Shown here one piece after another: positions 15,661-41,805 of a stretch of 64,000 bases of DNA (positions are counted from its first letter, which is position 1; the number at the start of each line of letters is the position of its first letter). The notes beneath the pieces were generated by a model that worked only from the letters and a program-made list of their open reading frames with translations, had not been told where the DNA came from and ran no database searches. Source of the DNA: Escherichia coli. Its GTDB lineage: Bacteria; Pseudomonadota; Gammaproteobacteria; Enterobacterales; Enterobacteriaceae. The stretch lies in NCBI RefSeq assembly GCF_003334765.1, contig NZ_QOWT01000023.1, one strand, 5' to 3'. Made by a program: the position numbers and the translations under genes.

Positions 15661-15758
<98 letters not shown>

Positions 15759-16713: not shown

Positions 16714-16800
16714 GTAGGCCGGATAAGGCGTCCCCGCCGCATCCGGCACAGGCACCGTGCTGATGTCTGATGCGACGCTGGCGCGTCTTATCAGACCTAC
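16714..16800. repeat. REP/BIME palindromic units
   Basis: GTAGGCCGGATAAGGCGTCCCCGCCGCATCCGGCAC and GTCTGATGCGACGCTGGCGCGTCTTATCAGACCTAC. Confidence 0.7.
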
Positions 16801-29922: not shown

Positions 29923-30822
29923 TTACGCAGAGAAAAAGGCGATGAGGATCGGCACTAACAGGCTAAGAATAAAACCGTGAACAATTGCCGCCGGGACCAT
30001 ATCCAGCCCGCCAGTACGTTGAAGAACGGGCAGGGTGAAATCCATTGATGTGGCACCGCATAAGCCCAGTGCAGTAGAGCGGCTGCGGCGAATCAGCCCA
30101 GGGATCAACATAATAGCAATCAGTTCACGGGCCAGATCATTAAAAAACGCCGCGCTCCCGATTACCGGACCAAAAGATTCGGTCAATAAAATACCGGAAA
30201 GAGAATACCAGCCGAAACCGGAGGCCATTGCCAGCGCGGTATTGATGGGGAGATCAAGAATAAAGGCGTTAATTAAACCACCAATTAATGAACTGACAAC
30301 CACCACCACGGCGACAATCATTCCCCGGCGATTAAGGACAATCTGCTTTAAGGTCATGCCATTATTGCGCAACTGAATACCAACGAGGAAAAGTAGCAAA
30401 ATTAACGTGTATTCACTGGCTTCGGTTGCGTGTTGTAAGAAAGCCAGTCCACTTAGACCAATGGCAAAACCAATCACTACTACGCCGCACAGTTTTAGCG
30501 ACTCCAGCGCCATCGCAATACGCGACGGGAGTTTTTCTTGCTGATGGTGGTTGCGCCACGGCAGGCCTCGCTCCAGCCACATCAGGGCGGCAATATTACA
30601 CAGTAAAATAACGGTAATACTGACGGCAGAATAATGCAGAATCGCCAACAGGTTACTGGCGAGGTTATCGAGAAACGCCAGACTGATACCCATAAAAAAG
30701 AGAATAAGGTAAACCATCCAGCTTAATAGCTGATTAATAACTTTTAACGCAGCTTGTTGGCGAAGCGGAATGAGGTAACCCACAATCAGGGGAACCAGAA
30801 TGATTAACAGCCCAGAAAACAT
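29923..30822 (-). CDS. lysO: Lysine exporter LysO (YbjE)
   Basis: 299 aa from MFSGLLIILVPLIVGYLIPL...; multi-pass membrane protein. Confidence 0.85.
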   Translation of the reverse strand: MFSGLLIILVPLIVGYLIPLRQQAALKVINQLLSWMVYLILFFMGISLAFLDNLASNLLAILHYSAVSITVILLCNIAALMWLERGLPWRNHHQQEKLPSRIAMALESLKLCGVVVIGFAIGLSGLAFLQHATEASEYTLILLLFLVGIQLRNNGMTLKQIVLNRRGMIVAVVVVVSSLIGGLINAFILDLPINTALAMASGFGWYSLSGILLTESFGPVIGSAAFFNDLARELIAIMLIPGLIRRSRSTALGLCGATSMDFTLPVLQRTGGLDMVPAAIVHGFILSLLVPILIAFFSA

Positions 30823-30999
30823 GAAAACCCAGTCCTTGCAAAGATGAAGTCGAAATGCGCGATGACACACTACTGAAAGCGGAAGGACGAGTAAAGTTGC
30901 AATTAAAAGGAAATGTTATGCATAAGGAGCAGTAGAGTATTCGTTTTCATTTAAAGATATTCTTGCGCTTTAATTACAAACTGCACCGATGTTGGTGGC

Positions 31000-31200
31000 G
31001 TCAAAATCGCCGAGGCGTTCCCTGAAGGCCGGGGCAGCCCACATGGATGTGGGCTGAGGGCGCGTTTTACAGGGATGTTACCTCGCGCCCGACCCGGTAG
31101 CCGTAAGGGATAAGTCGAGGGCACCGCGCAGCGGCGATTTTGTTCGCCAGAGCCCGGGGGTGCAGGGGGCGGCGGCGATTGGCCGCCCCCTGCGCGCTCC
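31000..31200. repeat. GC-rich structured intergenic element with two strong palindromes; family not recognised
   Basis: GCCCACATGGATGTGGGC and GCAGGGGGCGGC-ggcgattg-GCCGCCCCCTGC hairpins in a non-coding ~200-bp stretch between lysO and aqpZ. Confidence 0.35.
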
Positions 31201-31276
31201 TTGCGCCAGTGGCAATATGTTGCTTAGCTCATGAAAGGAGCGCAACAAGATGATGAATCAACATATAACAACATCT

Positions 31277-31307
31277 TAAAAAAAGGCCTGACATTACGCC
31301 AGGCCTT
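31277..31307 (-). terminator. Rho-independent terminator of aqpZ
   Basis: Minus strand: hairpin AAGGCCTG...CAGGCCTT followed by a T7 run immediately downstream of the aqpZ stop. Confidence 0.55.
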
Positions 31308-31316
31308 CTGCGTTAA

Positions 31317-32012
31317 TTAATCACGCTTTTCCAGCAGGGTCCGGTAAATCAGACCACCGATAATGCCGCCGACAATTGGCACCACCCAGAAGAACCACAG
31401 TTGTTCTAATGCCCAGCCGCCCTGGAAGATAGCAACCGCGGTGCTGCGCGCCGGGTTAACAGAAGTGTTAGTCACCGGAATACTAATTAAGTGAATCAGG
31501 GTTAAGGCCAGACCAATAGCGATCGGCGCAAAACCTGCCGGCGCGAATTTGTCGGTTGCGCCGTGGATCACCAACAGGAAACCTGCACTCAATACCAGTT
31601 CAACTACCAGCGCGGAAAGCATGGAATAACCGCCTGGTGAATGCTCGCCATAACCGTTAGAAGCAAAACCGCTGGCTGCCGCGTCAAAACCCGTTTTACC
31701 ACTGGCAATTAAATACAGCAGCGCCGCTGCAACAATACCGCCGACAACCTGGGCAATTACGTAGCCAACGACTTCTTTTGCCGGAAAACGTCCGCCAGCC
31801 CATAAACCAATAGTGACCGCCGGGTTAAAATGACCACCAGAAATATGACCAACAGCAAAGGCCATCGTCAGAACGGTCAGACCGAACGCCAACGCCACGC
31901 CGGCAAAACCAATGCCTAATTCCGGGAAGCCTGCGGCCAGTACAGCACTACCACAGCCACCAAAAACAAGCCAGAAAGTACCAAAACATTCAGCTGCTAA
32001 TTTTCTGAACAT
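31317..32012 (-). CDS. aqpZ: Aquaporin Z
   Basis: 231 aa from [21 protein letters not shown]...; two NPA motifs ([14 protein letters not shown]). Confidence 0.95.
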
Positions 32013-41717: not shown

Positions 41718-41805
41718 GTTCACTGCCGTACAGGCAGCTTAGAAATTCACAGGTAACATACTCCACCCGCCCACCATGTTCACTGCCGTACAGACAGATA
41801 AAATG
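41718..41805 (+). CRISPR. Orphan type I-F CRISPR mini-array (2 repeats, 1 spacer; CRISPR4-like)
   Basis: Repeat 1 (41718-41745) GTTCACTGCCGTACAGGCAGCTTAGAAA is the I-F repeat; 32-bp spacer TTCACAGGTAACATACTCCACCCGCCCACCAT (41746-41777); degenerate repeat 2 (41778-41805) GTTCACTGCCGTACAGACAGATAAAATG. No cas genes in the window. Confidence 0.8.

Follow-up and report, generated by a model that had tools for sequence, protein, structure and literature searches.

The palindromic element between lysO and aqpZ of Escherichia coli is the repeat TRIP1a, whose conserved three-domain fold carries two CsrA-type loops

What kind of element occupies the spacer between lysO and aqpZ of Escherichia coli, and whether it could act as DNA or as RNA, is the question raised by a GC-rich stretch at positions 31000-31200 of a contiguous 64,000-nucleotide piece of E. 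coli DNA (NCBI RefSeq assembly GCF_003334765.1, contig NZ_QOWT01000023.1), which in its full length is called the window here. A preliminary description made from the letters alone had reported two strong palindromes in a non-coding region, seen no match to the repetitive extragenic palindromic (REP) consensus that it found elsewhere in the window, and suggested that it might belong to a further class of intergenic repeats or else be a structured RNA. The stretch does lie in a non-coding spacer, of 494 bp, surrounded by the genes hcp, lysO, aqpZ and ybjD, and its G+C content is 0.64 over 31001-31140. With practical certainty, the element is TRIP1a, a named and previously published repeat of E. 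coli K-12. Window position 30960 corresponds to position 914995 of the MG1655 chromosome (offset 884035), and with this offset the published coordinates place the flagged stretch wholly inside TRIP1a. According to BLAST the sequence is 100% identical to that of K-12 derivatives; the element is the same object as the published one, differs from it in nothing, and is ordinary as a sequence feature. Of the two suggestions, that of another class of intergenic repeat was right (TRIP1 has three copies in K-12 and is distinct from REP), and that of a structured RNA is plausible. The REP consensus (GCCGGATGCGGCG...CGCCTTATCCGGCCTAC) is not present in 30981-31246, which has nothing in common with the REP units of the window, and a BLAST search of the element against the window finds only the element itself.

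TRIP1 repeats were described by Rudd (1999; Res Microbiol) and, building on that work, by Li et al. (2024; Genes 15:236, PMC10888264). In the latter account K-12 carries TRIP1a at 915016-915281, TRIP1b between putP and ycdN (putP/efeU), which measures 146 bp and has a 125-bp internal deletion, and TRIP1c between yohI and yohG (dusC/yohP), and other strains have the further locus types TRIP1d (alx/sstT) and TRIP1e (copA/ybaP). TRIP1a is 266 bp long, and distances of 70 bp and 158 bp separate it from the stop codon of aqpZ, which it follows, and from lysO, which it precedes. TRIP1 sequences have 62-65% G+C and a predicted 'double-Y' fold, are present in 0-5 copies per genome, occur in both orientations at the a and c loci, and recombine with each other to give inversions of up to 1.3 Mb, which makes these substrates of megabase rearrangement of practical interest (PMC10888264). 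The study covers E. coli only and on function says just that the repeats have the 'potential to be transcribed'. The library searched contained no other papers on TRIP1, and the YohP paper contains no description of the dusC/yohP spacer. The label 'RSA' found no support and was dropped; searches for RSA, Box C, IRU and BIME (bacterial interspersed mosaic element) gave unrelated papers only.

The published paralogues, orientations and fold were recovered independently in the present analysis; E. coli as a whole has five TRIP1 locus types. Matches to the stretch are present in all 5426 complete E. coli genomes searched by BLAST, at a median of 3 and a maximum of 10 places, and a 63-nt core comprising two hairpins is found at a median of 2 places per genome, the second of which is 100% identical in many genomes. 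Homology to the other E. coli copies slightly exceeds the published ends (Table 1): with window 30960-31280 as query, the copies at the dusC locus in L007 and L008 (L-numbers denote the loci compared) align to query positions 9-298 at 94-95% identity, and the dusC/yohP copy of L018 (7116-7387) has 94% identity over 272 nt. At putP/efeU, K-12 has the short form without the two hairpins (L017 3845-3998, matched by BLAST in two pieces with the core missing), and other strains have the long form. The preliminary description would have abandoned its reading had the sequence been single-copy, identical to K-12 and without palindromes conserved in other enterobacteria; identity to K-12 is indeed complete, yet the element is multi-copy and the palindromes are kept in Klebsiella and Citrobacter, so that this objection fails.

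Both palindromes are located where they had first been seen, with arms that are 100% complementary according to an inverted-repeat search: CAGCCCACAT/ATGTGGGCTG at 31035-31044/31047-31056, and GCAGGGGGCGGC/GCCGCCCCCTGC at 31162-31173/31182-31193, the latter enclosing an 8-nt loop. Three structures have to be added, namely an outer stem of 16 nt (31002-31017/31127-31142), a second hairpin inside that stem (31058-31090), and a third stem (31194-31202/31235-31243), which with the palindromes make up a nested set of inverted repeats. Read as + strand RNA, the 276-nt element (30985-31260) has a predicted minimum free energy of -144.1 kcal/mol, compared with -116.5 +/- 5.2 kcal/mol for dinucleotide shuffles of the same stretch (z = -5.3; none of 200 shuffles as stable). 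The minus strand has a similar z-score, as is to be expected of palindromic DNA. The ensemble free energy, calculated here for a slightly longer stretch, is -148.51 kcal/mol, and the published value for TRIP1a is -143.99 (PMC10888264). In its GC-richness and its stable, multi-branched ('double-Y') predicted fold the element of the window thus has both traits of the TRIP1 family. The sequence 3' of 31193 reads CGCGCUCCUU, and since no U tract follows the hairpin of domain II (Table 1), this hairpin is not an intrinsic terminator; a scan of 30700-31450 reported no terminator-like site on either strand.

Relatives of the element occur at 82-86% identity in Klebsiella pneumoniae, K. variicola and K. 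aerogenes (BLAST against PLSDB) and at about 70-75% identity in Citrobacter freundii, a range inferred from pieces of chromosome that are mislabelled as plasmids in PLSDB. A scan of species-representative genomes with a 24-mer of the left arm gave 6 matches, all in Escherichia, the pattern being too specific to inform on taxonomic range. For an alignment of 16 distinct long copies from E. coli, K. pneumoniae, K. aerogenes and C. freundii, RNAalifold predicts 73 pairs in three domains, 29 of which (helices 1-5) close both hairpins of domain I. Paired combinations fill 97.3% of the alignment cells, a value that falls to 40-44% once the 3' partners are slid by 1-3 columns, and at least 96% of the cells are paired in every helix of four or more pairs. 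Changes on both sides are seen in 27 of the 73 pairs, against 9.6 +/- 1.7 in shuffles (0/500 reach 27) and only 3-8 pairs in the slide control. As the copies are related and the structure was derived from these same copies, the comparison with shuffles makes them look more independent than they are; more robust evidence comes from the slide control and from how many distinct pair types occur. Helix 6, the stem of hairpin 1, has changed on both sides in five of its nine pairs with 98.6% of cells paired, and its arms read CAGCCCAC/GUGGGCUG in E. coli, CAGCCCGC/GCGGGCUG in Klebsiella, GAGCCAGC/GCUGGCUC in Citrobacter and CGACGCGC/GCGCGGCG in TRIP1d. Helix 11 (domain II) contains compensatory changes in K. 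aerogenes and Citrobacter, and domain III (helices 12-13) covaries, with GCGCUCC/GGAGCGC in E. coli and Klebsiella versus CGUUCAC/GUGAACG in Citrobacter; two-sided changes are absent from helices 4 and 5. Within the closing stem of domain I, GA opposite GA is invariant in the 16 copies (alignment columns G28 A29 and G133 A134). We conclude that the three-domain fold is very probably under selection and has been kept by compensatory substitutions across three genera.

The alignment also distinguishes between the strands. Read as + strand RNA it contains 33 G.U cells over 12 pairs, and A.C cells, which are G.U on the minus strand, number 8 over 5 pairs. In 16/16 copies the + strand RNA is the more stable one (mean -140.7 versus -130.3 kcal/mol), and all Rfam matches to the TwoAYGGAY motif (see below) lie on this strand, which is the one that carries the GGA motifs. 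The + strand, which is antisense to both aqpZ and lysO in the window, would thus probably be the relevant one. This evidence is suggestive and not decisive: many of the G.U cells stem from few events, and base composition adds to the gap in stability.

While the stems vary, the loop context C-A-N-G-G-A-Y-G is invariant at both hairpins of domain I in 16/16 copies from three genera. The invariant alignment columns are C58, A59, G61, G62, A63, T64 and G65 in hairpin 1, whose loop bases C A. G G A U G are thereby the same in all copies, and C86, A87, G89, G90, A91 and G93 in hairpin 2. In the window the loops read ACAUGGAUGU (31041-31050) and ACAGGGAUGU (31069-31078), and the pattern ACANGGAYGT is found at 31041 and 31069 only, on either strand of the 64 kb, with 0.89 occurrences expected. 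The SELEX-derived consensus for CsrA binding is RUACARGGAUGU, with AC/GU pairs closing the six-nucleotide loop that holds the GGA, and a single CsrA dimer is able to span two sites at a distance of 10-63 nt (PMC7652899). Hairpin 2 (UUACAGGGAUGU) fits this consensus at 11/12 positions and hairpin 1 at 9/12; AC/GU closure is present in both loops, and their GGA motifs are separated by 28 nt, which is inside the bridging range. Judged by sequence, domain I therefore looks like a pair of candidate CsrA sites in loop position, consensus fit and spacing.

An Rfam comparison had been proposed in the preliminary description, and a permissive scan of the spacer yields a resemblance to TwoAYGGAY (RF01731, clan CL00106) that stays under the gathering score of the family (Table 1). 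In Rfam, the family that best matches the E. coli copies, and also one of those from Citrobacter, is TwoAYGGAY. In the description of Weinberg et al. (2010), a large P1 stem closes the motif, which has two AYGGAY loops, and their alignment includes several copies from Psychromonas ingrahamii with ACAUGGAUGU and UACAGGGACGUA loops, some of the Psychromonas sequences also carrying ACAGGGACGU. Gardner and Eldai independently proposed that TwoAYGGAY binds CsrA, and pointed to tandem GAs in a stem (PMC4333381). Among the TRIP1 copies, loop 1 is AUGGAU in 15/16, and loop 2 is AGGGAU, AGGGAC, ACGGAC or AAGGAC, with mostly a purine at position 2.

Table 1. Features of the lysO/aqpZ spacer and of TRIP1 copies, with positions in the window
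Feature	Position	Strand	Basis or remark
lysO	29923-30822	-	
aqpZ	31317-32012	-	
TRIP1a repeat as published	30981..31246	+	= MG1655 915016-915281 (PMC10888264)
Widest homology to other E. coli copies, ~290 bp	30968..31257	+	BLAST of window 30960-31280 against loci
Domain I: long closing stem, invariant GA/GA 2x2 internal loop, two enclosed hairpins	30996..31149	+	Fold, RNAalifold helices 1-5, covariation
Hairpin 1 (first palindrome): nine-pair stem, loop context ACAUGGAUGU	31035..31056	+	Inverted-repeat search, helix 6
Hairpin 2: lower stem of GGGCGCG/CGCGCCC, internal loop, upper stem of AC/GU, loop context UUACAGGGAUGU	31058..31090	+	Helices 7-8
Domain II (second palindrome): perfect 12-pair GC-rich hairpin, 8-nt loop	31162..31193	+	Inverted-repeat search, helix 11
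Domain III: stem GCGCUCCUU/AAGGAGCGC, pairing up the Shine-Dalgarno-like AAGGAG	31194..31243	+	Inverted-repeat search, helices 12-13
TwoAYGGAY (RF01731) match	31001-31140	+	Permissive Rfam scan of the spacer; 30.6 bits, E = 0.01, gathering score 43
TwoAYGGAY scores of other E. coli copies			30.9 and 33.1 bits
TwoAYGGAY score of one Citrobacter copy			25.6 bits, core only
Sigma-70 'constitutive promoter' TTGACG-19-TGTAAT assigned to ybjE (lysO)	30973..31004	-	PMC3946193 table; hexamers placed on the window sequence; context, outside the fold of the repeat
aqpZ terminator hairpin AAGGCCTG...CAGGCCTT, then U run	31283..31307	-	Inverted-repeat search; ~30 nt past the right end of TRIP1a

The reading that we prefer, and hold tentatively, is that TRIP1 is a protein-binding module working at the level of + strand RNA. 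With rather more doubt, domain I may bind CsrA or a CsrA-like factor, as its loops suggest. In such a mechanism the active form would be an RNA copied from the + strand, and the two loops would hold the two faces of one CsrA dimer; the bound element might tether or titrate CsrA, or bring it to the transcript that carries the element, and domain I would be, in architecture, the enterobacterial, GC-rich counterpart of TwoAYGGAY. One could go further and regard TRIP1 as the enterobacterial branch of a TwoAYGGAY class of dispersed RNA modules, each with two GGA loops of high-affinity type holding one CsrA dimer, whose copy number, orientation and common loss of domain I tune a small, strain-variable CsrA buffering or local recruitment, which we consider rather unlikely. 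If the link to CsrA were true, it would connect a repeat and an Rfam motif that are both orphans with the enterobacterial post-transcriptional regulator that has been studied most thoroughly, and a function would be given to a K-12 repeat that has been an orphan for 25 years as well as to that motif.

A number of observations weigh against this RNA-level reading. A consensus scan found neither a sigma-70-like promoter nor an intrinsic terminator in or beside the element on either strand, and inspection by eye for sigma-70 and sigma-54 boxes found nothing convincing upstream of the E. coli copies or in a left extension of about 60 nt that precedes the Klebsiella copies. Different strains have the element in both orientations at the same locus, and the GGA strand is antisense to both neighbours at lysO/aqpZ and at putP/efeU; such variable orientation and antisense placement are compatible with no fixed cis role on a host mRNA. 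Short direct repeats (microhomology) were the sites of at least four independent internal deletions, which removed one or both hairpins in TRIP1b, L002, L003 and L009, and TRIP1b, a form with such a deletion, is present in 52% of E. coli genomes (PMC10888264). Domain I was lost in this way, and selection on the hairpins is accordingly weak at some loci. Binding capacity would be small, as one TRIP1 element has two sites and CsrB has many repeated CAGGA(U/A/C)G elements, and the TRIP1 stems are very stable, a property that may be disadvantageous for CsrA binding (PMC7652899). The tables of a CsrA crosslinking-immunoprecipitation (CLIP) and omics study list no peaks or effects for ybjE and dusC (PMC5694010); these tables are gene-based, and reads mapping to several near-identical repeat copies may have been dropped from them. 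As to TwoAYGGAY, no match to it is reported in the window at the Rfam gathering threshold, all copies tested score below 43 bits, and the K. pneumoniae copy of L012 gives no match up to E = 10.

The main rival follows closely: TRIP1 may instead be a selfish or passively spread DNA repeat like REP/BIME and Box C, its hairpins being kept for spread (as single-stranded or cruciform DNA, or through a loop-recognising protein) or as a generic stable 3' structure, and its likeness to CsrA sites being coincidental. Much of what speaks against an RNA module suits a dispersed DNA repeat, including the occurrence of both orientations at one locus, the recurrent internal deletions, the lack of a promoter or terminator in the consensus scan, and the use of copies as substrates for large inversions (PMC10888264). 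Copy number varies, with the 0-5 per genome cited above and as many as 13 BLAST places in a 5.37-Mb chromosome record of K. pneumoniae, and the loci differ between genera. All Klebsiella loci are different from those of E. coli and lie between convergent genes, the copies following an ABC-F ATPase gene, a nitroreductase gene, rimO, sitD and a mechanosensitive-channel gene. Moreover, 7/7 Klebsiella copies begin directly after a REP unit (L011, L012, L013, L020, L021, L022), the conserved extension that precedes them (GTTCGTGCGRCCTGYCGTTAATTTATTCACC...TGAAACTGCCGGTG) not being present in the E. coli copies, and several are then followed by a Box C-like unit (CTCCCGGAGGGAGAGGG), so that the repeats form mosaics as BIMEs do. 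In one spacer of K. pneumoniae two copies stand in tandem (L021, 2005-2343 and 2444-2780), and the yeiP/torD spacer of C. freundii holds an inverted pair (L019, 2212-2391 on the minus and 2498-2677 on the + strand). In the alx/sstT spacer, K-12 has a Box C-like repeat (L023 3049-3259) where L014 (2910-3337) has TRIP1d together with unrelated DNA. These two alleles differ over the whole spacer, as though an exchange of spacer cassettes and not the insertion of an element had taken place.

The manner of spread is less in keeping with a selfish element. Neither terminal inverted repeats (beyond the internal stems) nor a target-site duplication nor a clean empty site was found in the alleles compared, and no transposase or other gene is consistently adjacent to the copies at the loci examined. 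The end sequences CTGCACCGATGTTGG and CATGAAAGGAGCGCAACAAG show no inverted relationship to one another, and alleles with the element, without it or with it inverted differ in all of the surrounding spacer DNA, so that the features of a miniature inverted-repeat or other non-autonomous transposon are not seen. At lysO/aqpZ the orientation in L002 is opposite to that of K-12, and at dusC/yohP that in L007 and L008 is opposite to that in L004, L009 and K-12; as the orientation alleles also differ in the unique spacer DNA to the left and right, they are neither simple inversions nor clean insertions. A simple inversion in situ through the 13-nt inverted repeat 30957-30969/31239-31251 was rejected for the same difference in the outside spacer DNA. 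A search of 50,697 phage records gave no match, and a mobile parent element on plasmids was discarded, as all plasmid matches turned out to lie on chromosomal gene segments; 34/34 of the PLSDB records are typed non-mobilizable, and the one conjugative plasmid (IncHI1) has its TRIP1-like copy inside an IS26-flanked segment of Citrobacter chromosome. Finally, a multi-helix junction, invariant loops, an invariant tandem GA and a G.U bias towards one strand exceed the needs of a simple palindromic repeat.

Some records seen in this comparison are peculiar in themselves. The 'plasmids' pMTY11352_3 and pZ1323HEC0475-2 (L003 3951-4192 and L002 2985-3124) contain a chromosomal poxB-hcr-hcp-lysO-aqpZ-ybjD-ybjX segment, in one of them with an 80-bp deletion of both TRIP1a hairpins and in the other with an inverted short form, and may be misassembled pieces of chromosome. 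A metagenomic contig of 2.8 kb labelled 'Proteobacteria bacterium' (L005) is E. coli-like and holds a partial inverted TRIP1 (5-116), only the last 19 codons of dusC and then a full TRIP1c (422-690), an arrangement that could mark the junction of a rearrangement or result from faulty assembly at the repeat.

A local, cis-regulatory role in the lysO/aqpZ spacer, in place of a function common to the family, is improbable, whether TRIP1a would supply or insulate the lysO promoter or serve as a barrier or terminator after aqpZ. A genomic-SELEX study assigns the promoter TTGACG-19-TGTAAT to ybjE (lysO) (PMC3946193), and its -35 box is the reverse complement of 30999-31004, in the left arm of TRIP1a, reading away from the element towards lysO. 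By our count, however, the spacer is 20 nt to TGTAAT and 19 nt to TTGTAA, which is long for sigma-70, and the site was not reported by the consensus scan. In TRIP1b the same TTGACG points to efeU and is followed by TATTAT some 19 nt downstream, but this arm faces the 3' end of a gene in the inverted allele L002, at dusC and at alx, and the Klebsiella copies have TTGAGG in its place and sit between convergent genes. Although TRIP1a lies directly after the aqpZ terminator, a local role would leave the conserved fold and loops unexplained, and the promoter in the arm is at most a local side effect.

A small protein, encoded by a 9-codon open reading frame (ORF) after an AAGGAG that stands 8 nt before ATG ATG (31250-31279, +) or by minus-strand ORFs of 56-57 aa (30951-31124 and 31078-31248), was rejected as hardly credible even though the annotation of one K. 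aerogenes record places an 'uncharacterised protein' over the copy: the short ORF is unconserved between copies (MMNQHITTS and a stop here, MRD and a stop at dusC, absent in Klebsiella), the AAGGAG is paired inside a covarying stem, the copies differ by indels of 1-2 nt and paired compensatory changes that are not codon-like, and RefSeq annotates nothing under the TRIP1a match among the matches listed from 5426 genomes. The AAGGAG-ATGATG frame (31236-31279, +) ends at the aqpZ terminator, and in L007, at the dusC locus, this start begins a longer ORF, which extends antisense into dusC.

Outside this spacer, the REP sequences noted in the preliminary description at 15661-15758 and 16714-16800 proved to be ordinary ones, with Rfam matches to ES036 (15695-15737) and naRNA4 (16717-16797). 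The window as a whole is not that of K-12 and contains a cluster of insertion sequences at 54600-58600, which comprises an IS200/IS605 tnpA with matches to the IS200-linked RNAs STnc100 and STnc490 (54682-55026), a fragment of a group II intron (D1-D4; 55732-55902), and IS1 and IS3 transposases. The whole arrangement occurs in only 7/5426 complete E. coli genomes, including NCTC9082 and an O55:H7 strain. A gene for the small RNA RybB is located at 3941-4019 on the minus strand (105.3 bits), and a single CRISPR-DR4 repeat unit at 41718-41745 scores 50.1 bits, above the Rfam gathering threshold; E. coli strains without type I-F cas genes keep a remnant repeat near clpA/infA, which this unit may be.

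Like REP/BIME and Box C repeats, TRIP1 is GC-rich, palindromic and multi-copy, and it is found in spacers just after the ends of genes in either orientation; REP/BIME units are hairpins of 35-40 bp, whereas TRIP1 is a multi-helix junction of about 270-290 bp with far fewer copies. With TwoAYGGAY it shares the long P1 stem around two adjacent hairpins, the A-Y/N-GGA-Y loops, the internal loop in the second hairpin, the tandem GA and, as seen in the gamma-proteobacterium Psychromonas, the presence of several copies per genome. TRIP1 differs in being far more GC-rich and in having two extra domains (31162-31243) outside the TwoAYGGAY model. Domain I and TwoAYGGAY share an architecture, with scores that fall outside Rfam membership; common descent is possible, and so is convergence on the same protein-binding design. 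The CsrA-binding RNAs, that is the decoys CsrB, CsrC, RsmY and RsmZ and the hairpin of glgC type, have the same GGA in a six-nucleotide loop with AC/GU closure as TRIP1a. Relative to the published account of TRIP1, which has no Klebsiella or Citrobacter relatives, covariation, strand bias, TwoAYGGAY resemblance or CsrA-type loops, what is new here is the wider taxonomic range, the three-domain fold backed by covariation, the strand bias, and a TwoAYGGAY-like domain with two invariant loops of the CsrA consensus. With its conserved fold, favoured strand and near-perfect CsrA-type loops, a repeat described in 1999 now poses a question of function that is directly testable.

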